This document shows, piece by piece, positions 8,723-34,213 of a stretch of 64,000 nt of DNA. The position numbers were made by a program, and so were the translations under genes. The stretch lies in assembly GCA_018992565.1 (NCBI GenBank), contig JACVGW010000003.1:178-64177 (forward strand). The letters are read 5' to 3'. The number at the start of each line of letters is the position of its first letter. Position 1 is the stretch's first letter. Source of the stretch: Theionarchaea archaeon (GTDB lineage Archaea > Methanobacteriota_B > Thermococci > Methanofastidiosales > SZ-28-30). Under the pieces are notes generated by a model. It was not told where the DNA came from, searched no databases, and saw nothing but the letters and a program-made list of their open reading frames with translations.

Positions 8723-8726
8723 TGGA

Positions 8727-19368: not shown

Positions 19369-19445
19369 CCTCCTTTGTTTTGTCTAAAGAAAGTCTCCTC
19401 ATGTCGGGGCTGTTCTTCTTGTCCTCAGTCGTTTTAACTCTCCCT

Positions 19446-19471
19446 TCAAAAAAGGGAAAAAGGGAAAAAAT
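19446..19471 (-). terminator. oligo-T tract after the SBP gene stop (candidate terminator between the SBP and permease genes)
   Basis: Plus strand CAAAAAAGGGAAAAAGGGAAAAAATT, read as T tracts on the coding (minus) strand, 6 nt downstream of the stop at 19477. Confidence 0.4.
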
Positions 19472-19476
19472 TGATC

Positions 19477-21393
19477 TTAGTCCTTTTTCTTTACCATGTA
19501 ACCAATGGCAAGTCCGACGATCAGGGCAACTATTCCAATCACAATGAGTGTCGTTGTAGACGTGCCGGCTCCTGCTTCTCCGCCTTCCACAGTCACTTCC
19601 TTCTCTATGATGTAGAAGCGGTATCCTGCCATGTCCATAAGTTCTCGTGCCTTAGCCAGGTCATATGAATCTGGGGCAACGTTGGTGTTGAACGCCCATG
19701 AGGGAACAGCAACAGGATTCCTTCCGGGTACACCATAGCCACCCAACAGGTTATCAACAATTCCCTGTCTGTCAATACAGTGGGAGATAGCCTGTCTCAC
19801 ATACTTGTTGGCCAGGTATGGGTTGCGGCAGTTGAAGTGCAGGTGCTGGTATCCGAACTGCTCTGACGTCCACAGCTTGACTCCGGGAGTAGCCTCGAGC
19901 TCCTCACCAATGATTGTCAAGTTGTAATAGGTGTCCACAATGTCTGCTTCGCCAGTTTCCAGGGCAACACGGGCTGCCTCTCTCTCAGGTATCAGCTTCA
20001 GTACCAGGAAGTCGCATCCAGCATCTGGGAGACCGTACTTGGCACCCCAGTAGTCGGCATTCTTCTTCAGCTTCCAATACTGATCGGCTTCCCAGGAGTC
20101 AAAGACGAAGGGTCCAGAACCAATAACGGTCTCTCCCCTGTTAACATCAGACTCCATCCAGCCAGTGGCAGCTTCTGCTCCCGTTATGGGGATACTACCG
20201 TAGACGTGCTTTGGCAGAATGTTCACATCACAGTTTCTCAGCCACGCAGCGTGGGGCATTCCCACGAATACTCTCAGCGTGTACTTGTCAATGATCTCTG
20301 ATCCACCATACACATCTCTGAATGTCCCGTATCCCTGGAATGCAGTATCCGGGCTGACACAGGCGTCAAAGGACCACTTGATGTCTTCACTGGTCATTTC
20401 TACGCCATCGTGGAACATGATACCTTCTTTTATCTTGATGTCAAAGTACTCCGGGAATACGACGGGTTCAGCAAGTTTGGAACTCACATTGCACTTCTTG
20501 ACATCAGGTGCAAGAGCTTCAATTGAGGCATCATCCAGCATGCTGGGTGCAAAGACAATGGTAGGCCCTTCTGTTGCAGAGTCAGCCAGTACTGGTGACT
20601 GGTTCAGATTCTCATCGTTCTGCCATAGTGTCTGGAATATTTGCTGGTTGCAGTAGTACCCATACACTGAGTTCCATCTCCATACCAGCATACCCTCGAC
20701 AGCTGCAGGCGTAGCGTATACAATGGTGTCCTTTCCTGGAATTGACCAGGACGCGGCATCATAATTCTGTGTCCACAGTAATCCACTGAACCCATCCAAT
20801 GTGTCCACTGAAGCCCACATGTTGAGTGGAATGTATACAACACAGTAGGGCTTCTCGTCTGCAACAATCTCCTGCCATCTCCACAGGTAATCCTTTCTGG
20901 TTTCCTGATTCAGTTCGACTCGTGCTTTAGCCAGCATCTCGTCGGACTCAGGGCAGTACCAGAATGTAACGTTGTTACCAATTGGTGTCATAGCAGAAGA
21001 GTGGAATATGTCGAATGGGTCAGGGTCTACACCCACAGACCAGCCGAACGAAGAAATATCGAATCCATCTTCAGAATAGGCTTTTCCATAGTAGTTGTTG
21101 AACTCTCTGTTGATCAGGTCACCGAATTCCAGCAACTTGAAGTCAGCCTGAATGCCAATCTTGGGCATCTCAAGGTTAACAGCCTGAGTATACTGCTCTC
21201 TCACTTTGTTACCAATGGGTGCAATTTGCGTAATCGTAAAGAACGGTGGATACTTTGAATAATCCTCAGTAAAAGGCACTTTTGTGATCTGCTGTTCCTG
21301 AGCAATCGCTGTTGTCCCGAATAAAGACAGTACCAAAGAAGTCAAGAGAACAATCGACAGCACCATTGAGACTTTTCTTGTTTTTACATTCAT
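19477..21393 (-). CDS. ABC transporter substrate-binding protein (peptide-binding, family 5) with a C-terminal Gly/Thr linker and TM anchor; close paralog of 32312..34213
   Basis: Start moved to MNVKTRK (ATG 21393) with GGAGG 10 nt upstream; signal peptide; about 80% amino-acid identity to the 32312 gene by eye; C-terminus GGEAGAGTSTTTLIVIGIVALIVGLAIGYMVKKKD. Confidence 0.8.
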   Translation of the reverse strand: MNVKTRKVSMVLSIVLLTSLVLSLFGTTAIAQEQQITKVPFTEDYSKYPPFFTITQIAPIGNKVREQYTQAVNLEMPKIGIQADFKLLEFGDLINREFNNYYGKAYSEDGFDISSFGWSVGVDPDPFDIFHSSAMTPIGNNVTFWYCPESDEMLAKARVELNQETRKDYLWRWQEIVADEKPYCVVYIPLNMWASVDTLDGFSGLLWTQNYDAASWSIPGKDTIVYATPAAVEGMLVWRWNSVYGYYCNQQIFQTLWQNDENLNQSPVLADSATEGPTIVFAPSMLDDASIEALAPDVKKCNVSSKLAEPVVFPEYFDIKIKEGIMFHDGVEMTSEDIKWSFDACVSPDTAFQGYGTFRDVYGGSEIIDKYTLRVFVGMPHAAWLRNCDVNILPKHVYGSIPITGAEAATGWMESDVNRGETVIGSGPFVFDSWEADQYWKLKKNADYWGAKYGLPDAGCDFLVLKLIPEREAARVALETGEADIVDTYYNLTIIGEELEATPGVKLWTSEQFGYQHLHFNCRNPYLANKYVRQAISHCIDRQGIVDNLLGGYGVPGRNPVAVPSWAFNTNVAPDSYDLAKARELMDMAGYRFYIIEKEVTVEGGEAGAGTSTTTLIVIGIVALIVGLAIGYMVKKKD

Positions 21394-21402
21394 ATGTTTT
21401 CT

Positions 21403-21422
21403 ACCTCCTTTGATCGGTATTG
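21403..21422. repeat. exact 20-bp direct repeat ACCTCCTTTGATCGGTATTG (copy 1, overlaps the RBS of the 19477 gene)
   Basis: Identical 20-mer at 32227..32246 in the same orientation on the plus strand, although the adjacent paralogous genes are inverted. Confidence 0.7.
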
Positions 21423-21464
21423 TATCCAACTACAGTGAAAGACTTATAAACCTTTCGGTTTCAG

Positions 21465-21476
21465 TAGTATATACTA
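21465..21476. promoter_or_regulatory. perfect 12-bp palindrome TAGTATATACTA in the AT-rich promoter region of the SBP gene (candidate operator, AGTA-N2-TACT)
   Basis: Seen directly; a TATA-like TTTATAA box (21443-21452, gene sense) lies nearby. Confidence 0.35.
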
Positions 21477-21643
21477 TATTAAGTCGTAGCTAAAGCAAAT
21501 AGTGGCATACTACACTACATAGTAGGTATTATCTTAAATAGTAAATTGAGAACTCTGAATTAGCTGCTTCTTGCTCTGGCATGGTGGAAATGAGCTTCTG
21601 CGAACATTCAAAAAAAGAAATACCAAAAAAACGAAAATCAAAT

Positions 21644-21832
21644 TCAGATCACGATGACAATTCCCATCTTCTCCAGAAAGAAATATATACAGATTAACAA
21701 GACTGCAATCAGTCCCAAAACAAACAATAGATTCATTTTTTCCTTTGAAATCCTGTAATCTCTGACAAAAATCCCCATAAGTAGCACATCACATACAATG
21801 GCCACCAACAGCAGCAGAGCTTGTACATTCAT
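21644..21832 (-). CDS. possible small membrane protein (62 aa, two TM helices)
   Basis: Hydrophobic ORF in an otherwise AT-rich intergenic region; weak support. Confidence 0.25.
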   Translation of the reverse strand: MNVQALLLLVAIVCDVLLMGIFVRDYRISKEKMNLLFVLGLIAVLLICIYFFLEKMGIVIVI

Positions 21833-21997
21833 GTAATTCCTCCTTTTTGAACATCATTTTACGAGTCTGCAGATGCAGCATCGTGGTTTCACTCCATTCA
21901 CATAAATACTTTTGGATTGTCTCAACGACCCACTATCTGATGAACAGCTCATGGCAATCTTTATAAAGAGATGATAACCAACTCCTATGGTGATCCC

Positions 21998-22429
21998 ATG
22001 AAACAGATTATGGCTGTACTATGTTGTCTTCTGGTGCTTGGCTGCACCATTGGTGTAAATCTTGACACGCCCGAAAATGCAGTGAGAACATGGATTCGAT
22101 CCTATAACGATCGAGATGTTGAAGGTATATATATTACACTCTCAAAAGCATACATTATGGCTAATGGTGGTGAGGAGCGAATAAAAGATAACATTAAAAC
22201 CATGTTGGAGGAAGCAGAAGAATCAGAGACAACCTTTGCAGTGAAAGGTATTGGAATGCTCGCCTTATCAGCAGAACAGCCAGGATTGCCATCAGACAGA
22301 ACCATATATCTGGCAAGAATGGATAAGGAGTATACGGCGCAGGGCGAGAAGGTGGTTGAAGAGGTCTTTTTCAATTTTGCAATTGTGAAAGAAGACGGTA
22401 AATACAAGATCGAAGACTTCTGGGACTGA
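21998..22429 (+). CDS. putative lipoprotein (143 aa)
   Basis: Start moved to MKQIMAV; signal peptide with lipobox-like VLGC; no catalytic motifs. Confidence 0.4.
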   Translation: MKQIMAVLCCLLVLGCTIGVNLDTPENAVRTWIRSYNDRDVEGIYITLSKAYIMANGGEERIKDNIKTMLEEAEESETTFAVKGIGMLALSAEQPGLPSDRTIYLARMDKEYTAQGEKVVEEVFFNFAIVKEDGKYKIEDFWD

Positions 22430-22854
22430 GAAGGAAATAGATCTACCACACGTGGTATTCTTTCCTCGCCATCCTTTCGTATTCTAAATGATGTACTATA
22501 TAGTGTAAGTATGGCTGTGGGATTGAGCAGCTACGGTCTTATAATGTGCCTGCCATGAAAACATGTGCCCCTTCTCCTGCCACATATTCTGGTGCACACT
22601 GCACTACCTCTGTTGTTATTTCTGGGAAGCACCTGGTATGGGTATTTAGAGAGGGTTGTTATGAGGAAAGGATGCACAAGATGCCCTCTTCGTCCCCGTA
22701 TCTCTGGAATTCCTTGTTCTACTGACGAGAGTCAGCAATTTACCACTCGTTTCTTTTGTCAGGCTGCAGTACGTTCCTTCTCCTGGTAATCAGGCTGGGT
22801 TTCTCACAGTGTATAAACACTCCTATCACTTTATGCTTCAAATGGAGTATTTAA

Positions 22855-22902
22855 ATGGTAAATTGTATACCATACCGTCAGAGGAGAAACCTTTAAAAGG
22901 TT
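22855..22902. promoter_or_regulatory. two inverted repeats upstream of the BlaI-like gene: ATGGTA-N7-TACCAT and AACCTTT-A-AAAGGTT, the latter overlapping a TTTAAAA TATA-like box
   Basis: Seen directly at 22855-22873 and 22888-22902; within 17-65 nt of the ATG at 22919. Confidence 0.3.
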
Positions 22903-22918
22903 ACCACGACAGGTAGTA

Positions 22919-23308
22919 GTGATGAACATTAAAAGACTTGGTCCTCTTGAACGAACTATAATGGAAGTCTTCTGGGAGAAGAAGAAAGCTGATGCACGGG
23001 AGGTCTATTCGGAACTCAACAGGGAAAAACAGATTGCATACACTACCATCAACACTACGCTCACGAGACTTCACAAGAAGAAACTACTCAACAGGAAGCT
23101 GGTGAAGGGAAGAGGAGGATACCGCTATGTGTACACGATTGCCAAGTCAAAACCAAAGTACATAGATCAGGTCATTCGCTCTACCATAGATGATCTCCTG
23201 ATGCGGTTCGGAAATCGGACTATCAATTACTTCTCAGAAAGTCTGAATTTAGATGAAGAAGATGTGGAGAAACTAAGGGCTCGTCTCAAGGAGTTGTCTC
23301 ATGAATGA
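22919..23308 (+). CDS. BlaI/MecI/CopY-family winged-helix transcriptional repressor
   Basis: N-terminal penicillinase-repressor fold signature LERTIMEVFWEKKKADAREVYSELNREKQIAYTTINTTLTRLHKKKLL; stop overlaps the downstream gene. Confidence 0.7.
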   Translation: MMNIKRLGPLERTIMEVFWEKKKADAREVYSELNREKQIAYTTINTTLTRLHKKKLLNRKLVKGRGGYRYVYTIAKSKPKYIDQVIRSTIDDLLMRFGNRTINYFSESLNLDEEDVEKLRARLKELSHE

Positions 23309-24638
23309 GTGGCAAAATCTTGCGCTTGCAGTTACCTTGATTGTGGTGGCACAGTTCACCAATGAAGGCATCATAGCCCTACTGAAGGTGAGGAATGCCA
23401 CCACCCGATTCCGAATAAGGCTTATTTCTCTGCTCTCCTGTTTCTTCATATTCTTGTTTGTTCCCTTCAAGATGGTTGAACTGACTATCTTGTCAGGAGA
23501 GATTCCTGCTGGCAATGCCAGCTCTTCCCAGATTGACAACTGGGTCGCTCGATCTGCCACCATGACGTCAACATATTCTGGATTTGCCCGGGCAAGTGTG
23601 GTTTTGCTGGTGGCTGCAGTTGTTTGCTTCGTGGTGATGCTGCTCTTCAGCAAGCAGATAGTAGCCAGGGTGTTTGAATGCGAGCCAGCAACAGATTCAC
23701 GACTTCTGACTGTGGTGAACAACGTCTCCTCCGAACTGGGAGTCTCCATCAAGCAGGTGATGGTGTGCAAGAAGAAATGTGATGCCTTTGTCTACGGGTA
23801 CCCTCCGTTTCTTGCAGTAGGAAAAGACCTCCTTGATGTTGTGAATGACAGTGAACTGCGGATAATCATACGACATGAGTTGTACCACATTAAAGGGAGA
23901 GACACACTCCTGAAGCCAGTTCTCGCCGCTCTGTGCATTATTTTCCTGTACAACCCCATGAGTTGGTTCCTGTATAATAGAGTGTTCACTGACAGAGAGT
24001 GTTGCGCTGATCAGGCGTCGATAACCTGCACTCAAGACACCCGGACATTTCTTTCCCTGCTCCTCAAATTCCACAGCCTCGCATGTGGAGCGCCATGTTC
24101 TCTCGCCGTTCATTGGATTGGAGCCACCAACAGGATTGACTCTCTTCTCTCTGCTGAAAAGAGTCGGAAAATCCCTGTTTTCCTGTGTCTGTTCTTCACG
24201 TTCTCTTCACTCTTTGTAGGAGGCACTCAGCTCTTCGGGAACCAGTATGTGGAAATCAACAGCTCCACACCTCTTGATCCCGAAGCCTATGGTCCGCAGG
24301 CTGATTTTTCGGGCTATTTCTATGATATTCCTGTGGCAGAATGGTACAACAAAACAATATCAGAAACTGAAGTGAGTATTCCCTTGCAGGAAAGAGATCT
24401 CAGAAAACTCCTGTCTGCAGATGAGCTTTCCAGAGGGGAGATTACCATTAGGATGGCCACACTGCCGCTGGGAAGGAGACCTCAATTTTTCGGGAGAAAT
24501 GACATTGTAGATGGCAACTGCAACCTCATCATTGAATTAGAAGACGGCAGGTTATTCGTTTCCATACGACAGAGCAGTGGCCCTGGATTCACTCAGAAAG
24601 AAGCCGTTCTCAATGGAGGACCTGCCACCCCACTGTAA
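23301..24638 (+). CDS. BlaR1/MecR1-like M56 membrane metalloprotease (signal-transducing antirepressor type)
   Basis: N-terminal TM helices; zinc motif IIRHELYHIKGRD (HExxH) characteristic of the M56/M48 family; gene order BlaI then BlaR1 with overlap. Confidence 0.6.
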   Translation: MNEWQNLALAVTLIVVAQFTNEGIIALLKVRNATTRFRIRLISLLSCFFIFLFVPFKMVELTILSGEIPAGNASSSQIDNWVARSATMTSTYSGFARASVVLLVAAVVCFVVMLLFSKQIVARVFECEPATDSRLLTVVNNVSSELGVSIKQVMVCKKKCDAFVYGYPPFLAVGKDLLDVVNDSELRIIIRHELYHIKGRDTLLKPVLAALCIIFLYNPMSWFLYNRVFTDRECCADQASITCTQDTRTFLSLLLKFHSLACGAPCSLAVHWIGATNRIDSLLSAEKSRKIPVFLCLFFTFSSLFVGGTQLFGNQYVEINSSTPLDPEAYGPQADFSGYFYDIPVAEWYNKTISETEVSIPLQERDLRKLLSADELSRGEITIRMATLPLGRRPQFFGRNDIVDGNCNLIIELEDGRLFVSIRQSSGPGFTQKEAVLNGGPATPL

Positions 24639-24799
24639 GGGTGGCCCCATGCCTGAAAGGTACACACACCTCATACTCCAGCTTGTGATCTGAACATTCT
24701 GGATGTGGGGCTACAGTCAGTCAATGTGGAGAGTGGATACTCTCTCTTATGGACTTTTCAATACAAAAGCATTTATGTAGAATCATGTGAGAGGACGCA

Positions 24800-26503
24800 A
24801 TGATCAGTGTTGAAGATCTCTCCTTTCAGTACAGCACACGTGAATCACTGGTGCTGAGGAATGTTAACCTGGTTGTCCCTCAGGGAGCCTACATTGCACT
24901 TGTTGGCCCTTCTGGTTCAGGAAAGAGCACTCTCTGTTTTACCATGAATGGAATCATACCTCACTCTATTGGAGGTCACCTGTCAGGGAAGGTACGTGTT
25001 GACAGCCTGGATACACGAGAACACCAGGTACACGAGCTTGCTGAAAAAGTGGGTATTGTTCTTCAAAATCCCGAATCTCAGTTATTTGCCATGAGTGTGG
25101 AGGAGGAACTGGCTTTTGGTCCTGAGAACCTGGGGCTGCCTCGAGAAGAAATAGTGGCCCGTATCGATGAGGCCCTCCGCATCATAGGGATAACGGATAG
25201 GGAGCGATTCCCCTTTTCTCTGTCCGGAGGAGAAAAACAGAAACTTGCCATTGCTTCTATTTTGACCATGAACCCCTCCCACCTCGTCCTGGATGAACCA
25301 ACATCTCAACTGGATCCAAGAGGAAGACAGAGTGTCTACCATGTCCTGGACGGCCTCCACGCTGGCGGGATGTCCATCATCCTTATTGAACACAATACAG
25401 AACACATTGCAGAACATGCCCAGCAGGTGCTGGTGGTAAAAGACGGCACTGTTGTGGCCTCCGGATCACCCGGGGATGTCCTTTCCCGCGTGGAAGAGAT
25501 GGAAGCTCTGGGAATACAGGTCCCTGAGGTTGCTGAACTGACCTATGAACTCTGCAAGAGAGGAGTCATAGAGAGAGTAGCAGTCACACTCGAAGATGCT
25601 GTATCCCTGCTTGAAAATTTAACCTTAAACAGGAAACGTCCCCCAAGCATGAGAGAGAAGTCAGGGTTCCTGAACCAGGAGACGTCACAGCCCTGCAGTG
25701 CAGCACCTGCCATTGAGGTGAGAGCCCTGTCCTTCCAGTACGACGATGTCCCTGTCCTCAACAATGTCTCCCTCACCATTGGACGGGGGGAGATTACAGC
25801 CATTATAGGACAGAATGGATCAGGAAAGACGACACTGGTGAAGCACTTCAATGGACTGCTGCGCCCCCATAGAGGAGAAATCTCTGTATTTGGAGAACCT
25901 ATTAAAGACAAGAGCGTTGCCCAGCTGGCCCAGAAGGTAGGATATGTATTTCAGAACCCTGATCATCAGATCTTTGCAGACAGTGTATTCGAAGAAGTAG
26001 AATTTGGCCCCAAAAACCTGCATGTGCATCCAGAAGAGAGACAGGAACGTGTGTCTGACGTCCTGAGGCAGACTGGCCTCCTCAAATACAAGGACACACA
26101 TCCTGCCAGCCTGTCAGGGGGAGAAAAACAGCGGCTCGTCATAGCATCTGTCCTGGTGATGAACCCTCACATTCTTGTATTGGACGAACCCACCACCGGC
26201 CTGGATCTCACGAGCTCCCGCTCAATTATTGAACTGGTTAAAGCCCTTCACCAGCAGAGTCGCACCGTGGTCCTGGTGACTCACGACATGAAGCTGGTAG
26301 CAGAAATGGCCAACCGAATACTCATTTTGAAAGAAGGGACAGTGGCTGCCGAGGGGAGTCCTCATGAGATCTTTTCAAACCAGGACCTGCTTTCTGACAA
26401 CTTCCTTGAAGCGCCCCAGATTACCAGACTCAGTAATCGCCTTGGATATGGAACATGCCTCAGTGTGGGAGAGTTGCTGCAGAACATGGAGGGTGGTCCA
26501 TGA
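24800..26503 (+). CDS. ECF/cobalt-type ABC transporter ATPase, duplicated (EcfA-EcfA' fusion)
   Basis: Two ABC cassettes with Walker A GPSGSGKST and GQNGSGKTT, signatures LSGGEKQK and LSGGEKQR, and the CbiO-type C-terminal helices. Confidence 0.8.
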   Translation: MISVEDLSFQYSTRESLVLRNVNLVVPQGAYIALVGPSGSGKSTLCFTMNGIIPHSIGGHLSGKVRVDSLDTREHQVHELAEKVGIVLQNPESQLFAMSVEEELAFGPENLGLPREEIVARIDEALRIIGITDRERFPFSLSGGEKQKLAIASILTMNPSHLVLDEPTSQLDPRGRQSVYHVLDGLHAGGMSIILIEHNTEHIAEHAQQVLVVKDGTVVASGSPGDVLSRVEEMEALGIQVPEVAELTYELCKRGVIERVAVTLEDAVSLLENLTLNRKRPPSMREKSGFLNQETSQPCSAAPAIEVRALSFQYDDVPVLNNVSLTIGRGEITAIIGQNGSGKTTLVKHFNGLLRPHRGEISVFGEPIKDKSVAQLAQKVGYVFQNPDHQIFADSVFEEVEFGPKNLHVHPEERQERVSDVLRQTGLLKYKDTHPASLSGGEKQRLVIASVLVMNPHILVLDEPTTGLDLTSSRSIIELVKALHQQSRTVVLVTHDMKLVAEMANRILILKEGTVAAEGSPHEIFSNQDLLSDNFLEAPQITRLSNRLGYGTCLSVGELLQNMEGGP

Positions 26504-27291
26504 TTCAGCAGACCATGTTTATCAGGAAAAGATCCTTTCTCCACTCCCTGGACCCGAGGACAAAGCTCTTCGTATCCATTAGCCTGTTTCTTGTGGGTAT
26601 TATGTTCAGTGACTACAGGGTTTTGACAGTTCTCTTTGTGCTTGAGATAATTGTCCTCAGACTTGTAGCCAGGATCCCTTTTGCGAAGCTGTTCCCCTAT
26701 CTGAAGTTGATTCTCCCTCTTGTGGTGATGGCACTTGTGATATGGCCCCTCTTCCAGAGAACAGGGACAGTCCTTGTATCATACTGGAAGATCATTATCA
26801 CGGAAGAGGGAATCCGGATGGGTATCGCCATGTCCTTCAGATTGCTGTCCCTGATCGTTGCCACATACCTGCTCCTGATGACCACTGAACAGAGAGATCT
26901 GGTTCTCGCTCTTGTTACCTCCGGGCTGCGGTACGACTTTGGATTGATGCTGGCAATTGCCCTGAGCAAGGTTCCTGCCCTGGCAGGGATTGCCATGACC
27001 ATTATGGACGCACAGAAGGCACGGGGACTGGAACTGGAAAAGGGCAATATTGTAGAAAAAGTGAGAAAGTATATACCTATATTAATTCCATTAATCATAT
27101 CGGCCATACGGCTGGCTGAAGCATTGTCCATTGCCATCGATTCCCGAGCATTTGGCAGAGGTAACCGCACGTATTTGAGAGAGCTTCACTTCACAGTGAA
27201 AGATGCGCTGGTCACTGGCATGACTGTGGTGATACTATCAGCATGTGTAGGAATACGCGCTGCAGGATTTGGTGTTATGGAATTGCCATAG
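26500..27291 (+). CDS. ECF transporter transmembrane (T) component, CbiQ/EcfT family
   Basis: Start MIQQTMF overlaps the upstream stop (ATGA); polytopic; conserved EcfT C-terminal ARG...IDSRAFGR-like motif. Confidence 0.7.
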   Translation: MIQQTMFIRKRSFLHSLDPRTKLFVSISLFLVGIMFSDYRVLTVLFVLEIIVLRLVARIPFAKLFPYLKLILPLVVMALVIWPLFQRTGTVLVSYWKIIITEEGIRMGIAMSFRLLSLIVATYLLLMTTEQRDLVLALVTSGLRYDFGLMLAIALSKVPALAGIAMTIMDAQKARGLELEKGNIVEKVRKYIPILIPLIISAIRLAEALSIAIDSRAFGRGNRTYLRELHFTVKDALVTGMTVVILSACVGIRAAGFGVMELP

Positions 27292-28085
27292 TGGCTGTGG
27301 CTTCCATACTGATATCTGCTACATTCAAGAACCCTGTAGAGGGATGGGCTGTCCTCATGGAAACTGATGATTTCCCTGAAGGATATACTGACCTTCCCAT
27401 GGGATTCGTGAATGTTGAAAGAATGGAGGAGCTGCTCCAGTACCATGGGTGGCAGGAATCGCACATTCTAGAAAGGAGAGACAATATTACGGCAGATACA
27501 GTGAGAGAAGGTATTGAGTTCCTGCAGGGAGCAGACCACAATGATATTGCTCTATTCTATATTTGTTCTCACGGGGGATACGTGAGATACGATCTTCAAT
27601 GGAATACCCTCATGCCTCCGCTCTGGGAGACTGTCACCAGTGAGAAGAGGATACTGATCATAGATTCATGTTATGCAGGTTCCTTTCTGCCAGAGAGTGA
27701 GAGTCCCTACGTGGGGATTGGCTCAGTCTCAGCAGAAGAGCTCGGGTGGGCAGGGCTACCAGAGGAGAACCTGCCCATTACAGGGTTTGTGTTTACCTAC
27801 TACTTCTGTGAGTCTACCCGGGGAATACCAATTGAGGAGGGATTTGAGAAGGCCGTTCCCCAGGTGAAGCAGTATATGCAGGAAATAGTATATCCAGCTT
27901 TCAAGGATCTCTATCCTCCCGAGTACTACAACCTGTACGATCCTCATCCAGTGTTGCAGGATTCCTATCCGGGGGGACTTTCGCTAGAAGTTGATGATGG
28001 CAGGACGTCTCTGTCTTACCTGCTGGCTGTCCTGATACTTTTTGTCCTGGGACTGGACATCGCCCTCAGGAAGACAACCAGGTGA
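27243..28085 (+). CDS. membrane-anchored C13 (legumain/GPI8/caspase-like) cysteine peptidase
   Basis: Catalytic His region FYICSHGG and Cys region LIIDSCYAGSF in the correct order and spacing; N-terminal signal anchor and C-terminal TM (LLAVLILFVLGL). Confidence 0.55.
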   Translation: MCRNTRCRIWCYGIAIVAVASILISATFKNPVEGWAVLMETDDFPEGYTDLPMGFVNVERMEELLQYHGWQESHILERRDNITADTVREGIEFLQGADHNDIALFYICSHGGYVRYDLQWNTLMPPLWETVTSEKRILIIDSCYAGSFLPESESPYVGIGSVSAEELGWAGLPEENLPITGFVFTYYFCESTRGIPIEEGFEKAVPQVKQYMQEIVYPAFKDLYPPEYYNLYDPHPVLQDSYPGGLSLEVDDGRTSLSYLLAVLILFVLGLDIALRKTTR

Positions 28086-28201
28086 TACCACTGGAAAATG
28101 TGTGATGAATCGGGCTCTACACAGAGTATGAGAGTCTCTCACTCTTTGTTTCTCTGCGTACCGGCCAAAAGCTTTATATTTCAGCAAAGGCAATTCCTCG
28201 T

Positions 28202-29245
28202 GTGGAATCAACAACTGATATTCTGGAGAAACTTATAGAGGAAGAACAGAAAATACGACAGAAAGCAGAAGAATTGGGACTCCGTGTCGGAAAAGGACCT
28301 CCAGAAGAAGTTAAAAAACCTTTCAGGGCTAAGGAAGGAATCCCCAGAACAGAACTCACTGAAAGAGAGATGGCCCGGCTGTTGGCGGAAACAAGAGATA
28401 TCCTTGATATTTATAACACAGATTATGTTGCCGAACACTTTGATGAGGCAAATAATCTGTATCACTCGCTGAAGGACAAACCATTCTCTCCTGATTCTCT
28501 CATTGGATCACGAATTGTGCAGAACATTCAGGAACTGAAAGAGAGAATTGATGCGGTCGGAGAACAGGAGTCGCCGACAAAGCCGCTTGAGGAATTGCTT
28601 TCTGATGCAAAGAGGGTTCTCGATTCTCTGGACTCACTGGACTCAATTCAGGCGAAAAGACGGTACGCTGACCTGTTGAAGAGACAGCAGGAAATGCCAA
28701 GGAATGTGGATGAGCCACTGGAAGTCGAAATTGATGAGTACCTGGTGGAAATTGGAAAAAGAATCCAGAGATCAGAAAAAAAGACATCGGAAGAGATTGG
28801 AGAAGAACTTCTGGAAGAGATCAGCACCTTGATTGGCTCCGGTACCTTTAATCCCGATGGATACAACAGAATTGCAAAAAAATTCCAGGAGATAGCAGAT
28901 GATCTTCCTGAAGACCTCAAATTGAAAATAAGAGACCGCATACGCGAATCCTATGCCAAGATGAAGGACCTCGAACAGAAAGAACACGTTGAAGAACGCG
29001 TACGGGAGGTACGTGCCAAGAAGTTCTACTGGGATTCCTTTGCTCAGGAAGTGGAACAATTGAAAGCCGACCTGGAGCGGGCATCACCTGGGGAGTTCTT
29101 CAGGCTCTATGACATCTATGATCAGCTGCTGGACTCTCTGGAACATGCAGATCTGTCTGATGTTCATGCTGCCCAGATTGACCGCGTAAAATCAATGGTA
29201 GATCAGTGTTACTACATGCTTGAAGAACTGAGATCGCGAGCGTAG
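28202..29245 (+). CDS. acidic coiled-coil protein, hypothetical
   Basis: Highly charged (E/K/R/D-rich) with predicted long helices; no enzymatic motif. Confidence 0.4.
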   Translation: MESTTDILEKLIEEEQKIRQKAEELGLRVGKGPPEEVKKPFRAKEGIPRTELTEREMARLLAETRDILDIYNTDYVAEHFDEANNLYHSLKDKPFSPDSLIGSRIVQNIQELKERIDAVGEQESPTKPLEELLSDAKRVLDSLDSLDSIQAKRRYADLLKRQQEMPRNVDEPLEVEIDEYLVEIGKRIQRSEKKTSEEIGEELLEEISTLIGSGTFNPDGYNRIAKKFQEIADDLPEDLKLKIRDRIRESYAKMKDLEQKEHVEERVREVRAKKFYWDSFAQEVEQLKADLERASPGEFFRLYDIYDQLLDSLEHADLSDVHAAQIDRVKSMVDQCYYMLEELRSRA

Positions 29246-29249
29246 CGTC

Positions 29250-30041
29250 TTACTTGGGTAGTCTTCCCAGTTCCACCACTCCTTTGGAAACGATGCGCTG
29301 GACTGTTGTTCTGGATCCGATCTTCAGGCTGCCATCACACATGACTTTCTGAAGGACGCTGTCAGATCCCACGTAGATATCTCCTTTACAGTACACATCT
29401 TCTTTCACTTCGCAGAAGTTCCCTATTTCCAGCTGGACTTCTATGTTAACGGGCGAATTAATGATATTTCTGTCTCCTAGAGAAGCATCCTTGCCTTTGA
29501 TGGAACCCTTGAACTCGCACTCTGCCTTGCTCTTCACTGTTGAAGCCACGACATCACCATATACCATATTCTTGTCGCCGAGGTGTACTTCTTCTCCTGC
29601 CTCGATATTCCCTTTTATAATGACTCCATCTCCCAGGTGAATGCTGCGGCTTGTTTTCAGCCCTCCGGTAAGAACTAGATCATCAGAGAGGCTGATGTCT
29701 GAGTCTCTAGCCACAATGGCAAAGGTTTTCAGGGAAATCTCATCCTTCTTCTGCTGTATTACCTGCTGAAGTTCGGAGATTTCAAGGTTTTTCTCTTCAA
29801 TCATCTGTTTTAGCTGCCGCTCCGTCTCCGTAAAATTCTCCACCTTATCCAAGAGAGCCTGGTTATCCTCAGTGAGCCTCTCGGCTACTTCTCTCAGCTT
29901 GGATACTCCGCCGTATTCCTTTCTGTACGTCTCCAGCTCTCTGGTGAGACGGGAATTTTCATCCCGCAACTCGGTGGCCATCCGTCTTAGAGATTCTATG
30001 ACCTCATCTTTTCCTTTATCAAAGAGCCCCATGCTGTTCAA
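29250..30041 (-). CDS. bactofilin-like (DUF583/CcmA-type beta-helix) polymer-forming protein with an N-terminal coiled coil
   Basis: C-terminal half shows repeated Gly-punctuated segments (LTGGLKTSRSIHLGDGVIIKGNIEAGEEVHLGDKNMVYGDVVAS...GSIKGKDASLGDRNIIN) typical of the bactofilin beta-helix; N-terminal ~100 aa are heptad-like. Confidence 0.45.
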   Translation of the reverse strand: MNSMGLFDKGKDEVIESLRRMATELRDENSRLTRELETYRKEYGGVSKLREVAERLTEDNQALLDKVENFTETERQLKQMIEEKNLEISELQQVIQQKKDEISLKTFAIVARDSDISLSDDLVLTGGLKTSRSIHLGDGVIIKGNIEAGEEVHLGDKNMVYGDVVASTVKSKAECEFKGSIKGKDASLGDRNIINSPVNIEVQLEIGNFCEVKEDVYCKGDIYVGSDSVLQKVMCDGSLKIGSRTTVQRIVSKGVVELGRLPK

Positions 30042-30190
30042 CCTCCATTCTTTTTCTCAATACCATATATATAGCTTTTTCCATTGCCATTGTCAGGCTG
30101 GTGAAGACCACTTTTGTTGCCAGGTTAGGCTCTCTTCCTCTCATGTGGGCAAGCAGGAATTTTCTCCTCACTTGAATGACAAAATTGAGC

Positions 30191-30652
30191 TCACACCGAG
30201 GAATTCTTCTTGACCAGCTCAAACAAGCACTGATTGGCCCCGGCAGCTTGACAGGAGGTCTCCCTGTACATGATGTCTTCCTCGTTGTAGTATCTGGAAA
30301 CCAGCCCCTCGAAAAATCCGGCAAGAAAGTGACACACAGGTTCATCACTTTTCTCATAGCCAGAAGCAATTGGGGAATCAATAACCTTGAATCGCATTTC
30401 TTCGGGATGAAAGGTGGCCTTGACAAAGCCAGTGGCCTCCAATTCCGCAAGAAGATCCTGGATGGTGGCACTTTCTTCCTCAGATTGCATAATCTCCATG
30501 TACCTGTCACCAAATTCTCTTCCTGCAGAATATAGAACCTTTGCCGCGGACGTGCCTATGGATGCCTCCAGTGTTTTCTGAATCTTCATGAAAATGCTGT
30601 TGAGCACCACCAATTTCCGCTTTTTTTCCACCGGCAGCAATTCTTTCATCAT
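30191..30652 (-). CDS. V4R-domain protein
   Basis: Conserved V4R region with Cys: PVCHFLAGFFEGLVSRYY...TSCQAAGANQCLFEL. Confidence 0.55.
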   Translation of the reverse strand: MMKELLPVEKKRKLVVLNSIFMKIQKTLEASIGTSAAKVLYSAGREFGDRYMEIMQSEEESATIQDLLAELEATGFVKATFHPEEMRFKVIDSPIASGYEKSDEPVCHFLAGFFEGLVSRYYNEEDIMYRETSCQAAGANQCLFELVKKNSSV

Positions 30653-30775
30653 ACCTCATTTCCATCGAGACTTATAAAGGTATAGTAGACGAGCAGAGGA
30701 GCAGTACGCACTCCTTCCTGCTGGCAATTCGAACCCTGCTGTCTCCCGCGCCTGTCATCGCGCCGGGAAGGCACT

Positions 30776-31570
30776 TTATGAGCCAAACCAACTATCCAAC
30801 CGTCTCTGTCCAGGTTGGGCTTTCTCGTAGGGAATATTCAGCAGGTCTTTCAGCATTCTGGCATTGGTGATTGCCTGTCCCCGGGGGTGGTTGTTGAACT
30901 GGAGATACAGTGTCTCAGTTGACAGGCGCATGTTCTGGACTTTGGGTACCCATTCCTTCAATTCCTCTTCTGTGTACTGGTAATCATACCAGTGGGAGGG
31001 GTTTCTCCCGTGCCATCTCACATATCCAAGATCTGATGTAACCCGCACAATAGGTTCCATCTTCACAGAATCTGTAACAACAAAGGCAGTGTGGCTGTCT
31101 CTGAGAAAAGAGTCGTCTGTCTTTGAATCCCACGAGGTATGACGGAATTCTACAGCAAACCGCACATTGTCAGGCAGAAAGTCCAGAAACTTCTTCAGGT
31201 TGTCTTCGTACTCTGTGGAGAACTTTGGAGGCAACTGTATGAGAAAACAGCCCAATTTTCCCGAGTCAATTAAGGGGAACATCAGAGAATAGAATTCCTT
31301 GAATACTGGTTCTGCGTTTTTGAGAAATCTCTTGTGGGTAATTTCTCTGGGAATCTTTGCTGTGAATCTGAAATCATCAGGTACCTTCTTGTTCCAGGAC
31401 AAGACGGCATACTTATTGGGAAGAGCATAAAAGGTTGAATTGATTTCTACCAGGTTGAATTCTCTTGCGTAGAACTCCAGCATCTTTCCCTTCTTGATAC
31501 CTTCGGGATAGAAGGGGCCAATCCAATCATCGTAGCTCCAGCCACTGGTTCCTATAAACAGAGTTCCCAT
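30776..31570 (-). CDS. DUF72 (YecE-like) family protein
   Basis: N-terminus FIGTSGWSYDDWIGPFYPEG and overall length match DUF72. Confidence 0.7.
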   Translation of the reverse strand: MGTLFIGTSGWSYDDWIGPFYPEGIKKGKMLEFYAREFNLVEINSTFYALPNKYAVLSWNKKVPDDFRFTAKIPREITHKRFLKNAEPVFKEFYSLMFPLIDSGKLGCFLIQLPPKFSTEYEDNLKKFLDFLPDNVRFAVEFRHTSWDSKTDDSFLRDSHTAFVVTDSVKMEPIVRVTSDLGYVRWHGRNPSHWYDYQYTEEELKEWVPKVQNMRLSTETLYLQFNNHPRGQAITNARMLKDLLNIPYEKAQPGQRRLDSWFGS

Positions 31571-32129
31571 AATATGGATTTACCTGCAGGGAGAAAAATG
31601 TTGCGGTAGATGTACCACCCTGAGTTTCCATGACCTCACTTACTGTGGTCATTGCCCCTGGAATTGAGATCTCTCACTTCGCACCAGCACACCTCCTTTG
31701 TGTCATGGCACCCGGTCAATAACGATTCACAGACACAATAAGATACTGGTGGTTCATCGCGAAGAAAGAGCAGAGCAGCGGAGAAGAGGAAACCAGAGGG
31801 GGGACTCTGTCTCTGGACTATAGTCAGAACCCTTCTGGTGCAGAATGGAACCCTCATCGCTTTAGAAAGAACCTGATCACTTCTTGTTCTTACGTGAATC
31901 CCAAAGAATGACGAGTGAAGAATGGGTTCAAATGTGTGAAATCTGAAGTGGGTGCGTGTCCATTTCTGGGTCAGATATCCCACAGAAAATTCGATATTCA
32001 GCCTAAGGACTCATCTCGCGAATAATTACTATCTAGCATTACCACTCCTGAACGATATATGCACTACTCTCCCTGTATAGATATTAGGTAGTAGCTCTAG
32101 AGGGAGTGATGATAATTCCAAGCGAAAGT

Positions 32130-32168
32130 TTTATAAAGTACAGTAACTACTAAGCCAGAGTAGTTACT
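32130..32168 (+). promoter_or_regulatory. TATA box (TTTATAAA, 32130-32137) followed 5 nt later by a perfect 10-bp inverted repeat AGTAACTACT-N7-AGTAGTTACT (32142-32168), a candidate operator overlapping the predicted TSS of the SBP gene
   Basis: Seen directly; AT-rich region; BRE-like AAAG upstream of the TATA; ~145-nt leader before the ATG at 32312. Confidence 0.4.
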
Positions 32169-32226
32169 ATTTTGAATAGTATCTACAACTGAGACAATCC
32201 CGGGCCGTTCACTGGATGAAGATGTC

Positions 32227-32246
32227 ACCTCCTTTGATCGGTATTG
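32227..32246. repeat. exact 20-bp direct repeat ACCTCCTTTGATCGGTATTG (copy 2); its CCTCCTTTG is complementary to the SD CAAAGGAGG at 32292-32300
   Basis: Identical to 21403..21422; can pair with the downstream SD (9-bp stem, ~45-nt loop) in the leader of the 32312 gene. Confidence 0.7.
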
Positions 32247-32311
32247 CACATTCGATCCGACATCACATCTGGTGGATGGCAAGGGAAATGGAGACCAAAG
32301 GAGGATTAAAA

Positions 32312-34213
32312 ATGAATACAAGAAAAATTTCGGCAATCCTGTCAGTTGTGCTCGTTGCTTCTCTCGTAATATCCCTTTTCGGAACTACCACCGTCGCTCA
32401 GGAGGAGACGATGACGCAGGTACCTTTCACCGAAGACTATTCAAAGTACCAGCCATTCTTCACCATTACGCAGATTGCACCCATTGGTAACAAAGTGAGA
32501 GAGCAGTACACCCAGGCTGTCAATCTTGATATGCCCAAGATTGGCATTCAGGCTGACTTCAAGTTGCTGGAGTTCGGTGACCTGATCAACAGAGAGTTCA
32601 ACAACTACTACGGAAGCACATTTGCGGAGGACGGATTCGACATTTCTTCGTTCGGTTGGTCTGTGGGTGTAGACCCAGACCCATTCGACATATTCCACTC
32701 TTCTGCTATGACACCAATTGGTAACAACGTCACATTCTGGTACTGCCCTGAGTCCGACGAGATGCTGGCTAAAGCACGAGTCGAGGCAGATCAGGCAACC
32801 AGAAAGGATTACCTGTGGAGATGGCAGGAGATTATCGCTGACGAGAAGCCTTACTGCGTAGTATATGTGCCACTGCTCATATGGGGCTCAACGGACAAAT
32901 TGGAAGGATTTGACCCACTGCTATGGCTGCAGAACTATTCCTTGGAAACCTGGGAGATCCCAGGAAAGGACACCATTGTATATGGATCACCTGCAGCTGT
33001 GGAGGGTATGCTGCCCTGGAGATGGAACTCAGTGTATGGTCGTTATCTGCACTCACAGATATTTGAAAGCCTGTGGCTTGTAGATAGCAACCTTATGATA
33101 ACACCACGACTTGCTGACTCAGCAACAGCAGGGCCTACCATTGTCTTTGCCCCCAGCGCTATTGACGATGCCTCAATTGAAGCTCTTGGACCTGATGTCA
33201 AGGAGTGCAAGGTGAATGACAAGCTCGCTGAGCCTGTCGTCTTCCCCAAGTACTTTGACCTCAAGATCAGAGAAGGTATCATGTTCCACGATGGCGTGGA
33301 AATGACCAGTGAGGACGTCAAGTGGTCAATGGATGCTGTTATCAGCGCAGACACTGCATTCCAGGGATGGGGTACATTCAGAGACATATACGAAAGCTCA
33401 GAAATCCTTGACAAGTACACAGTAAGAGTATATGTTGGAATGCCTCATGCCGCATGGGTTCTGTACTGTAACCCAACTGTGCTGCCAAAGCACGTCTACG
33501 GTAGTATCCCCATAACGGGAGCAGAAGCTGCCACCAGCTGGATGGAATCTGACATCAACAGGGGAGAGAACGTTGTTGGTTCTGGACCCTTCATGTTTGA
33601 CTCCTGGGAAGCTGACCAGTTCTGGAAGATGAAGAAGACACCCAACTACTGGGGTACCAAGTACGACGTTCCTGACCCACAATTCGAATACTTCTTGATC
33701 AAGTTGATACCTGAGAGAGAAGCTGCCCGTGTAGCTCTGGAAACTGGTGAAATTGACATCATGGATACCTACTACCAGCTCGGTGCAATTGCTCAGGACC
33801 TGGAAGCTACTCCTGGCCTGAAGCTGTGGACCACAGAAGACTTCGGATACCAGCACCTGCACTTCAACTGCCGCAACCCATACCTGGCCAACAAGTATGT
33901 GAGACAGGCTATCTCCCACTGTATTGACAGACAGGGAATTGTTGATAACCTGTTGGGTGGCTATGGTGTACCCGGTGCTAACCCTGTTGCTGTTCCCTCA
34001 TGGGCGTTCAACACCAACATTGCCCCAGATTCATACGATCTGGTTAAGGCACGAGAGCTCATGGACATGGCAGGATACCGTTACTTCATCGTTGAGAAAA
34101 CAAGCGAAGCAGGTGGAGAAGAAGAGGCCGGAGGCGGACTCTGTCTTGGAACCCTGTTCATAGCCCTTATGGTTTTGGGCGGAAATCTGCTGTATCTCAA
34201 GAAGAGAAACTAA
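32312..34213 (+). CDS. ABC transporter substrate-binding protein (peptide-binding, family 5); orphan paralog of 19477..21393 with an OppA1-type C-terminal Cys-TM anchor
   Basis: Start moved to MNTRKISA (AAAGGAGG 9 nt upstream); signal peptide; long stretches identical to the 19477 gene product; C-terminus GGEEEAGGGLCLGTLFIALMVLGGNLLYLKKRN; no permease or ATPase genes adjacent. Confidence 0.8.
   Translation: MNTRKISAILSVVLVASLVISLFGTTTVAQEETMTQVPFTEDYSKYQPFFTITQIAPIGNKVREQYTQAVNLDMPKIGIQADFKLLEFGDLINREFNNYYGSTFAEDGFDISSFGWSVGVDPDPFDIFHSSAMTPIGNNVTFWYCPESDEMLAKARVEADQATRKDYLWRWQEIIADEKPYCVVYVPLLIWGSTDKLEGFDPLLWLQNYSLETWEIPGKDTIVYGSPAAVEGMLPWRWNSVYGRYLHSQIFESLWLVDSNLMITPRLADSATAGPTIVFAPSAIDDASIEALGPDVKECKVNDKLAEPVVFPKYFDLKIREGIMFHDGVEMTSEDVKWSMDAVISADTAFQGWGTFRDIYESSEILDKYTVRVYVGMPHAAWVLYCNPTVLPKHVYGSIPITGAEAATSWMESDINRGENVVGSGPFMFDSWEADQFWKMKKTPNYWGTKYDVPDPQFEYFLIKLIPEREAARVALETGEIDIMDTYYQLGAIAQDLEATPGLKLWTTEDFGYQHLHFNCRNPYLANKYVRQAISHCIDRQGIVDNLLGGYGVPGANPVAVPSWAFNTNIAPDSYDLVKARELMDMAGYRYFIVEKTSEAGGEEEAGGGLCLGTLFIALMVLGGNLLYLKKRN

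Follow-up and report, generated by a model that had tools for sequence, protein, structure and literature searches.

In a 64,000-nt stretch of a Theionarchaea genome (contig JACVGW010000003.1; hereafter the window), two genes for closely related substrate-binding proteins (SBPs) are divergently transcribed, and on the upstream side of each lies one copy of the same 20-nt sequence. One of the two, SBP-A, heads an operon for an ATP-binding cassette (ABC) importer, while the other, SBP-B, is an orphan. A first-pass annotation, made from the letters alone, took the two 20-mers as the brackets of an accessory-like segment of 10.8 kb. As analysed here, the repeat marks a previously undescribed, conserved and structured leader element in an uncultured archaeal class, with no match in Rfam. 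Why should the same letters serve as ribosome-binding site in one gene and stand antisense in the leader of its paralog? The argument turns on the following features, given in window positions.

19477–21393, minus strand: SBP-A, first gene of the second opp-type ABC operon, with a Pfam SBP_bac_5 match and followed by oppB, oppC, oppD and oppF; the proposed antisense target.
21403–21422, minus strand: 20-mer of the A-type leader, CAAUACCGAUCAAAGGAGGU; predicted to run from the 5' end of the SBP-A mRNA through its Shine-Dalgarno (SD) sequence, with the transcription start site (TSS) placed from the TATA position.
21423–32226, no strand: enclosed block, with a 152-aa open reading frame (ORF), BlaI, BlaR1, an energy-coupling factor (ECF) ATPase and CbiQ, a caspase-like gene, a 347-aa ORF, a FapA/bactofilin-like gene, V4R, DUF72 and an SBP remnant.
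32198–32286, plus strand: leader hairpin of SBP-B, 89 nt, −41.8 kcal/mol; above a long basal helix come a middle helix of 6 bp, an internal loop of 9 nt (ACCUCCUUU), the short helix P2 (GAUCGG/UCGAUC) and an apical loop.
32227–32246, plus strand: B-type copy of the 20-mer, consisting of an anti-SD (motif positions m1–9) and a specific extension (m10–20); exact complement of the SBP-A leader.
32296–32304, plus strand: SD of SBP-B, CAAAGGAGG, with A and not U as the base that comes after it; predicted to be free.
32312–34213, plus strand: SBP-B, an orphan paralog that lies between DUF72 and MscS and is not accompanied by permease or ATPase genes.

The repeat, ACCTCCTTTGATCGGTATTG, is present at 21403–21422 and 32227–32246, both times on the plus strand even though the genes are inverted; a window-wide motif search bore out the first-pass annotation in this respect and returned only these two exact copies. 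Allowing up to three mismatches, no further copy was found on either strand of the window, and two or more matches to the 20-mer occurred in none of 100 shuffles. The minus strand of the first copy reads CAATACCGATCAAAGGAGGT, and 9 nt separate it from the ATG of SBP-A; given this distance it holds the SBP-A SD, in keeping with its earlier designation as a ribosome-binding site. The second copy is antisense to SBP-B and ends 65 nt before the ATG, as also described earlier, and SBP-B possesses a separate SD, CAAAGGAGG, at 32296–32304 of the plus strand.

SBP-A and SBP-B are indeed close paralogs that resemble each other over their whole length, with 76% protein identity over 634 aa. Pairwise alignment of the two genes places the homology at 19601–21415 against 34098–32293, at 81% nucleotide identity, and the two share their promoter element (BRE/TATA, the TFB recognition element and TATA box); SBP-B is an inverted duplicate of SBP-A with the promoter included, and the inverted duplication proposed earlier stands. 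One detail needs correction: the near-identical part is not the N-terminal 80 or so residues but approximately residues 36–180, the first 35 or so (the signal peptide) being less similar. The alignment is a mosaic in which runs of 100% identity, the longest of 134 nt, lie beside stretches at 55–65%. At gene positions 335–480 and 1540–1675 the window copies (winA and winB) are 97% identical, against 87–94% for orthologs, whereas at positions 570–660 they share only 59% while orthologs share 85–88%. Because winA and winB are more alike than orthologs in two tracts, we attribute these to gene conversion between the inverted paralogs, which homogenises parts of the genes and leaves other patches divergent; the patches spared, such as positions 570–660, may set ligand specificity. 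The footprint of past recombination suspected in the first-pass annotation is thus real as an exchange of sequence between the genes, but it does not extend to the 20-mers. Conversion cannot explain these, because they run opposite to the orientation of the gene homology and their flanks are non-homologous.

Relatives of the window fall into several grades. A contig of another Theionarchaea metagenome-assembled genome (MAG), L017 (JACVGP010000022.1), is 99.9–100% identical to the window, and a contig from the European Nucleotide Archive, L012, is 99.7% identical. Sister MAG HXS52 (L001/L002) shares about 80–86% of nucleotides, L016 85% and L013/L014 about 73–75%. Further relatives are L010/L011, L015, L018, L020 (L010 at about 67–75%; some are labelled Methanofastidiosia) and L023, and L003, L006 and L019 are more distant comparators. 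A metagenome scan yielded one extra relative only. The number of orphan SBP genes between DUF72 and MscS varies from none in L010, through one in the window, L013/L014 and L016, to two in tandem (B1 and B2) in HXS52. An additional orphan, which we call SBP-C (L008/L009), belongs to MAG HXS41 and occupies an unrelated locus between a weak winged helix-turn-helix protein and a major facilitator superfamily (MFS) transporter. The SBP-A protein of HXS41 is identical to that of L017, so the window's species very probably has one A-type leader and two antisense-bearing orphans. Leaders from HXS52 are referred to as magA, magB1 and magB2.

Is the 20-mer conserved in both of its settings? All A-type leaders share one layout, in which BRE/TATA is followed after about 20 nt by the motif, then by 9 nt and the ATG, and CGRUCAAAGGAGGUAGA is kept in seven of them, from at least five lineages (window, magA, L010, L015, L018, L020 and L023); SBP-A of the sister MAG has the exact 20-mer. 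The reverse complement of the motif is found in every orphan leader, matching at 20 of 20 positions in winB and L016, 18 of 20 in magB1, magB2 and L008/L009, and 15 of 20 in L013/L014. Of the six orphan leaders, five preserve its 14-nt core, ACCUCCUUUGRUCG, without change and magB1 departs from it at two positions; the A-type leaders preserve the complement of the core in six of seven cases, the exception being L010 with one A-to-G change. When the six orphan leaders are aligned, the invariant columns cluster in the motif block; the 6-nt extension (m15–20) is lineage-specific and kept in part. The element thereby persists across lineages whose genes are about 70–75% identical and whose flanking leader sequence is unalignable. 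Could the 20-mer simply be a frequent motif, the alternative that the first-pass annotation itself had offered? It occurs only twice in the window, and across the roughly 293 kb of window and loci the core is confined to SBP leaders, with no occurrence elsewhere. The preferred proposal of that annotation, that the 20-mers are the footprint of recombination or a hotspot for it, does not hold either: the motif is kept in relatives in both contexts, precedes a third paralog at the unrelated L008 locus, and lies inside a hairpin whose stems change in a compensatory manner. We consider it likely that selection maintains the motif as an RNA element, rather than that it is the scar of a junction. The literature on Theionarchaea contained nothing that we could find on this locus.

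In the orphan genes, BRE/TATA lies about 90 nt upstream of the motif, so a transcript would include the motif in a 5' leader some 150 nt long. In every orphan leader a hairpin of 86–104 nt, with folding energies of −30 to −48 kcal/mol, encloses the motif, and in four divergent lineages its z-score is −4.1 to −4.7. The window hairpin scores −4.48 as the sense strand against −1.52 as the antisense strand; since it uses G·U pairs and folds poorly as the opposite strand, the sense RNA appears to be the structured species. Basal helices of 14–17 bp have unrelated sequences in the window clade, magB1, L008 and L013 (for example CCGUUCACUGGAUG, CCCUUGUAUGCCCCC and UUGUUGGACGAGAAU). Within the window clade, RNAalifold supports 32 pairs, five of them with compensatory double changes; covariation was counted within this clade only, and per-hairpin z-scores were used across lineages, the MAFFT alignment of six hairpins not being structure-aware for L008 and L013. 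The predicted fold puts m1–9 in the internal loop, m10–14 in a short helix and m15–20 in the apical loop. The nine anti-SD bases are predicted to be unpaired with a probability of 0.99 for the window clade, 0.72 for L008 and 0.45 for L013, and m10–14 (GRUCG) stays constant while its intramolecular partner changes between lineages. Searches of the whole window against Rfam 15 gave no match that reached the gathering score, and the region 32100–32330 gave chance-level hits only (E about 0.6). A covariance model built from the four window-clade hairpins (R1) found no further copies. As primary sequence weighs most in this model, L008 scored weakly (19 bits) and L013 escaped detection.

Upstream in-frame ATGs without an SD (window 32216, L001 7708, L013 1222, L016 1309) extend the orphan SBP calls into the leader hairpin; SBP-B measures 665 aa with the upstream ATG and 633 aa otherwise, and Joint Genome Institute (JGI) calls for the orphans of relatives are 642–644 aa. 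We rejected the ATG at 32216, or an upstream ORF starting there, as functional, since it is unconserved and lacks an SD, and gene callers choose different upstream ATGs in relatives. Two other roles for the B-side 20-mer were considered and set aside. It does not serve as SD of a small minus-strand ORF: in the window, magB1, L008 and L013 alike, a start codon at a suitable spacing is missing. Nor is it the relic of a divergent gene, for it stands antisense within the leader of both tandem copies and of the unlinked L008 copy.

What might the loop pair with? Complementarity to the region over the SBP-A SD extends to 20 of 20 positions in the window and to 14–20 bp in the other cognate pairs. 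Duplexes computed with RNAduplex between orphan hairpins and A-type translation initiation regions (TIRs) have energies of −26 to −39 kcal/mol. Opening the motif costs 5–9 kcal/mol, which leaves −16 to −30 kcal/mol, a figure that ignores topology. Beyond about −29 from the SBP-A ATG, the point at which the TSS is expected from the TATA position, the two sequences are no longer complementary. The SD is GGAGGA in every orphan and GGAGGU in the A type, and it is the latter that the first base of the motif, A, matches. The A-to-G change at m11 in L008 and L013, and that in the A-type leader of L010, both preserve G·U pairing between the two sense RNAs; the core changes of magB1 are mixed, m1 A-to-G keeping a wobble and m9 being unpaired. 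Of these two A leaders, the window type is the better partner for orphans of the window clade and the L020 type, by a slight margin, for L013.

These results suggest a mechanism. The SBP gene of the opp-type operon was duplicated together with its promoter and its copy placed, inverted, between DUF72 and MscS. In SBP-A, the 20-mer would form the 5' end and SD of a short mRNA leader of about 27–30 nt; in the orphans (SBP-B, the two tandem B genes of the sister MAG, and SBP-C), its reverse complement lies in the 86–104-nt hairpin of the predicted longer leader. The nine anti-SD bases displayed in the internal loop, ACCUCCUUU, would nucleate on the SD of the SBP-A mRNA, pairing would spread through the short P2 helix into the apical loop to give 14–20 bp, and the resulting duplex would occlude the SBP-A ribosome-binding site. 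The permease and ATPase genes would keep their own SDs, and an expressed orphan SBP could then replace SBP-A on the shared translocator. OppB has an SD of its own, AAAGGAGG (region 19357–19380, minus strand), and a T-rich tract, TTTTTTCCCTTTTTCCCTTTTTT, follows directly on the SBP-A stop codon (19448–19470, minus strand) as a possible partial terminator; blocking the SBP-A SD therefore need not silence the permease. No permease genes accompany the orphans. The listed OppB start, ATG 19368, abuts the SD, so that the in-frame ATG 19359 is probably the real start. The view that orphan leaders are built-in antisense RNAs, which block translation of SBP-A and allow the binding protein to be swapped, is put forward tentatively and falls somewhat short of probable; where transcription starts, whether the two leaders meet in vivo, in which direction and with what sign regulation runs, and that the permease is shared are all matters of inference.

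Several points weigh against antisense control of SBP-A. Nested cofolding gives a net energy of only 0 to −7.6 kcal/mol; the gain is small because the basal stem must open, RNAcofold being unable to pair inside a closed loop, and the computed gain is thus a lower bound. At nine of its 14 bases the core is a generic anti-SD that would also fit the SDs of SBP-B, of oppB and of the SBP in the first opp operon, so specificity rests on the five conserved bases and the lineage-specific six, and the conserved CGRUC of A-type leaders could have another cause. Pair-breaking changes occur outside the core at m18 and m20 of magB2 and m15 of L008, and inside it at m9 of magB1. The orphans represent four independent lineages only, both partners are known in two genomes only, and the TSSs of SBP-A and SBP-B are both derived from TATA boxes.

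Might the anti-SD act in cis instead? The leader would then pair with the SD of SBP-B itself, as a thermometer-like or factor-dependent sequestor, and its complementarity to SBP-A would be a by-product of ancestry. The bases CCUCCUUUG can pair with CAAAGGAGG over 9 bp in the window, and over 7–9 bp in magB1, magB2 and L016; a C-to-U change in the SD region of magB2 keeps a G·U pair, and the distant operon-type leader L003 likewise has GCCUCC about 50 nt upstream of GGAGGC. Intramolecular contacts, moreover, need less complementarity. Set against this, the duplex energies of orphan hairpins with their own TIRs (−17 to −22 kcal/mol) are near those of shuffled TIRs (−14 ± 3 kcal/mol), L008 and L013 allow only 5–6 contiguous bp, and the conserved m10–14 has no conserved complement near the orphan's own SD. 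The first base of the motif fits the GGAGGU of A and not the GGAGGA of B. In the nested ensemble, finally, the anti-SD pairs with the orphan's own SD at a probability of 0.00–0.02 and that SD is mostly unpaired, although a loop-SD pseudoknot lies outside what nested folding scores. On balance we regard control in cis as rather unlikely.

A second layer of control may reside in the promoters, which contain these features.

21443–21458, minus strand: BRE/TATA of SBP-A, CCGAAAGG TTTATAAG; the same element is found in all A- and B-type copies.
21460–21545, no strand: TAGTA/TACTAC palindrome cluster upstream of the SBP-A TATA; candidate operator.
32123–32137, plus strand: BRE/TATA of SBP-B, CGAAAG TTTTATAAA; would place the TSS near 32160 and give a 5' leader some 150 nt long.
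32143–32187, no strand: palindrome GTAACTACT-N7-AGTAGTTAC plus TAGTATCTAC, over the predicted SBP-B TSS; candidate operator in repressor position.

All SBP copies have the BRE/TATA consensus CGAAAnnnTTATAWA, and the SBP-A TATA (21443–21450) predicts a TSS at about −27 ± 3, which would coincide with the first bases of the 20-mer. The stretch 21460–21545 is the only cluster in the window with at least five TAGTA/TACTAC motifs in 150 nt, and such a cluster is present in all A-type promoters. On the orphan side, the palindrome arms are kept and the spacer is variable in L016 and magB2, with equivalent motifs in magB1, L008 and L013. The motifs therefore differ in placement: they lie upstream of BRE/TATA in A-type promoters, and directly downstream of TATA, over the predicted TSS, in orphans. 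Position-dependent archaeal regulators act oppositely depending on operator placement, and by analogy one factor could regulate A and B in opposite directions through the candidate operator. We suggest that such a shared operator may add reciprocal transcriptional control to the antisense pairing. The composite scheme, an archaeal mRNA–mRNA switch between paralogs that, together with a shared operator in opposite positions, swaps the binding protein on one ABC translocator, is possible but more doubtful than antisense control taken by itself. Equivalent TAGTA/TACTAC sites were seen in L001, L008, L010, L013, L015, L018 and L020. The A-type promoters of L010, L015, L020 and L023, but not that of the window, have a different, short inverted repeat, ATCCTC...GAGGAT, directly after TATA and before the predicted TSS.

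The 20-mer might also work as DNA, with one regulator binding the same double-stranded site of 14–20 bp in both promoters irrespective of its orientation. The duplex sequence is identical at the two loci, and both sites are downstream of TATA boxes, a possible position for an archaeal repressor. The site is non-palindromic, however, and in B it lies some 65–85 nt downstream of the predicted TSS, within a hairpin whose compensatory stem changes and G·U pairs point to RNA; a far more operator-like sequence, the TAGTA/TACTAC cluster, is already present in both promoters. An operator role of the 20-mer appears improbable.

We find it very improbable that the 20-mer is a neutral relic, an old inverted micro-duplication drifting without function whose identity has survived by chance. 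The paralogs are young (81% nucleotide identity) and short identical runs are common within the genes, but those runs are colinear and stem from gene conversion, which cannot act on a copy in opposite orientation. Furthermore, the motif has been retained across lineages of about 70–75% identity, where its flanks cannot be aligned, and the stems around it change in a compensatory way.

Barely credible, finally, is a recombination footprint (an att site, a target duplication or a template-switch junction) bracketing an accessory or invertible segment: an exact direct repeat does lie on the inner sides of 1.8-kb inverted repeats, the paralogs undergo gene conversion, indels occur near both ends, and an inverted local duplication probably created the antisense copy originally, yet the order and orientation of the block are kept in at least five lineages, one of them without SBP-B and the second 20-mer, integrase is lacking and composition is normal, the motif is also found at an unrelated locus and before each tandem copy, and the indels lie away from the 20-mers.

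The enclosed segment itself is a conserved gene order and not an island. MAG HXS52, L010/L011 and L020 share the arrangement and orientation of its genes, which lie upstream of the SBP-A opp operon there too; L018 keeps most of them, with a different DUF72-side end, and the block adjoins SBP-A in L012 and L017 as well. The synteny of block and SBP-A reaches down to about 70% nucleotide identity. The description of the segment as accessory-like cannot be maintained in view of this conservation, its composition and the lack of an integrase, and among the relatives compared the block is not variably present. Within our small sampling, no inverted orientation of the block was seen: HXS52 has the same orientation as the window, and the junction of DUF72 (minus) and SBP-B (plus) is the same in L013, L014 and L016. 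In L010, DUF72 is followed directly by a gene of the MscS family, without SBP-B and without the second motif. As L010 has the block nonetheless, the repeat is not an att site or target duplication of it, and the block predates the second repeat rather than having been inserted between two 20-mers. GC content is 0.44–0.51 inside the block against 0.47–0.50 outside, being lower only in the intergenic part at 21–23 kb. Pfam scans of all ORFs between 21971 and 35900 revealed no integrase, recombinase or transposase, in agreement with the first-pass annotation. Of the niche-type genes listed there, Pfam confirmed BlaI (Penicillinase_R) and BlaR1 (M56), the ECF transporter (a double ABC ATPase with a CbiQ T-component), V4R and DUF72; the other two calls are weak, the supposed C13 peptidase having only a weak caspase-like C14 match (E 4e-5) and the bactofilin lying under Pfam cut-offs (FapA 9e-7, Bactofilin 4e-4).

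A mobile element or genomic island was accordingly rejected, there being no integrase, no empty site with one repeat, and normal composition, and L010 having the block with a single motif. Like a genomic island with direct repeats, the locus has a short exact direct repeat around some 11 kb of mixed-function genes; unlike one, it has no recombinase, is not variably present, is found in a relative that lacks one repeat and is of normal composition. A segment invertible between the inverted repeats was rejected too, since only one orientation was seen among the relatives examined, a small sample. Framed as an island, the finding would be ordinary, the segment being conserved gene order; the sequence logic of the leader element, in contrast, predicts direct RNA cross-talk between duplicated genes.

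How does such cross-talk compare with known systems? In the RNA-OUT/RNA-IN pair of IS10, a long and stable stem-loop RNA uses its loop region to pair with the 5' end and SD of the target mRNA; exposed bases start the contact, pairing spreads, and ribosome binding is blocked. The pairing of a hairpin loop with the 5' end and SD of a target, as proposed here, is alike. Unlike RNA-OUT, which is made from the opposite strand of the same locus, the putative regulator is the sense leader of a paralog 10.8 kb away (and of another gene at a separate locus), its seed lies in an internal loop, and the host is an archaeon.

Among archaeal RNAs, sRNA162 of Methanosarcina mazei reportedly base-pairs over the ribosome-binding region of an mRNA encoded in trans, and a further target is encoded in cis. 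Two distinct domains of this RNA serve to target cis- and trans-encoded mRNAs (PMC3510493). Whereas sRNA162 comes from a separate small RNA gene, the regulator proposed here would be part of a protein-coding mRNA, namely its 5' leader, and would act on the mRNA of a paralog. The SreA and SreB riboswitches of Listeria act in trans, and the contact between the hly and prsA2 mRNAs is said to couple their expression positively. The contact within this pair is an mRNA–mRNA interaction (PMC8722363). The likeness to both Listeria cases lies in the leader of one mRNA pairing with another mRNA and thereby coupling functionally linked genes; hly-prsA2 differs in being bacterial and in involving neither paralogs nor an anti-SD.

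Post-transcriptional control of the binding-protein gene of an ABC importer has precedents as well. In enterobacteria, GcvB controls oppA and dppA. In Haloferax, sRNA132 acts on a phosphate ABC operon (PMC6560208). Both are dedicated small RNAs (sRNAs) with other seeds and without the logic of a paralog swap. At the level of transcription, the palindromic operator of TrmBL1/Tgr, the glycolytic motif of Thermococcales, lies upstream of BRE/TATA in some genes and downstream in others, with opposite regulation. Its placement mirrors that of the TAGTA/TACTAC clusters (not of the 20-mer) in A and B promoters, but the motif sequence differs and the operator here is a candidate only. New with respect to the closest mechanisms would be the presence of an antisense element in the sense leader of a paralog, recurring in several orphan copies, in an uncultured archaeal class. 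If the antisense proposal is true, it would provide a compact means by which a cell could change the specificity module of an ABC importer while its membrane components stay in a single copy, and a rare archaeal case of an mRNA leader as antisense regulator.

Indels lie near both ends of the block.

31742–31870, plus strand: 3'-end remnant of tandem copy B1, recognised from a blastn match (73% over 103 nt) with the 3' end of the MAG SBP gene and a blastx match (E 0.003) with the C-terminus of the L008 SBP.

B1 is intact in MAG HXS52 and persists as a larger remnant in L016. The surrounding stretch 31607–31997, which contains the remnant, has no counterpart in the sister MAG. A 115-aa ORF on the other strand (31636–31983, minus) overlaps the remnant, has no Pfam match and is probably spurious. 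About 40 nt upstream of the remnant, at 31689–31700 of the plus strand, there is a third, partial copy of the motif, CACCTCCTTTG (11 nt); it could be a leftover of the leader of the lost B1 copy, and the sequence around it, aligned to the leaders, matched none of them. The opposite end has an indel hotspot, a short way upstream of the SBP-A promoter: 2 kb are inserted in the sister MAG at window 21917/21953 (L002 7463–9471), with a 324-aa ORF that has no Pfam match, and the equivalent region of L015 (1861–3602) has genes for an ABC-2 permease and an ATPase. That 324-aa ORF is unrelated to the winged-helix-like protein upstream of the L008 SBP. Indels at the junctions, which the first-pass annotation would have expected, thus exist near both ends (the 2-kb insertion, and the tandem SBP copy or its remnant at 31.7 kb), but neither falls at a 20-mer.

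At the L008 locus, SBP-C is preceded by a 319-aa protein (8476–9435) with a weak winged-helix (HTH_24) match, and is followed by the MFS transporter and by a pair of PAS histidine kinase and response regulator.

SBP-A and SBP-B (19477–21393 and 32312–34213) look circularly permuted with respect to canonical proteins of the OppA/DppA family. Residues 52–205 align to 360–505 of B. subtilis AppA (1xoc) and residues 296–592 to AppA 58–345, and the Pfam SBP_bac_5 match is restricted to residues ~315–590, equivalent to positions 19–278 of the 368 in the hidden Markov model (HMM). Judged by eye from the protein alignment, the SBPs have a signal peptide and a hydrophobic C-terminal tail that resembles a membrane anchor.

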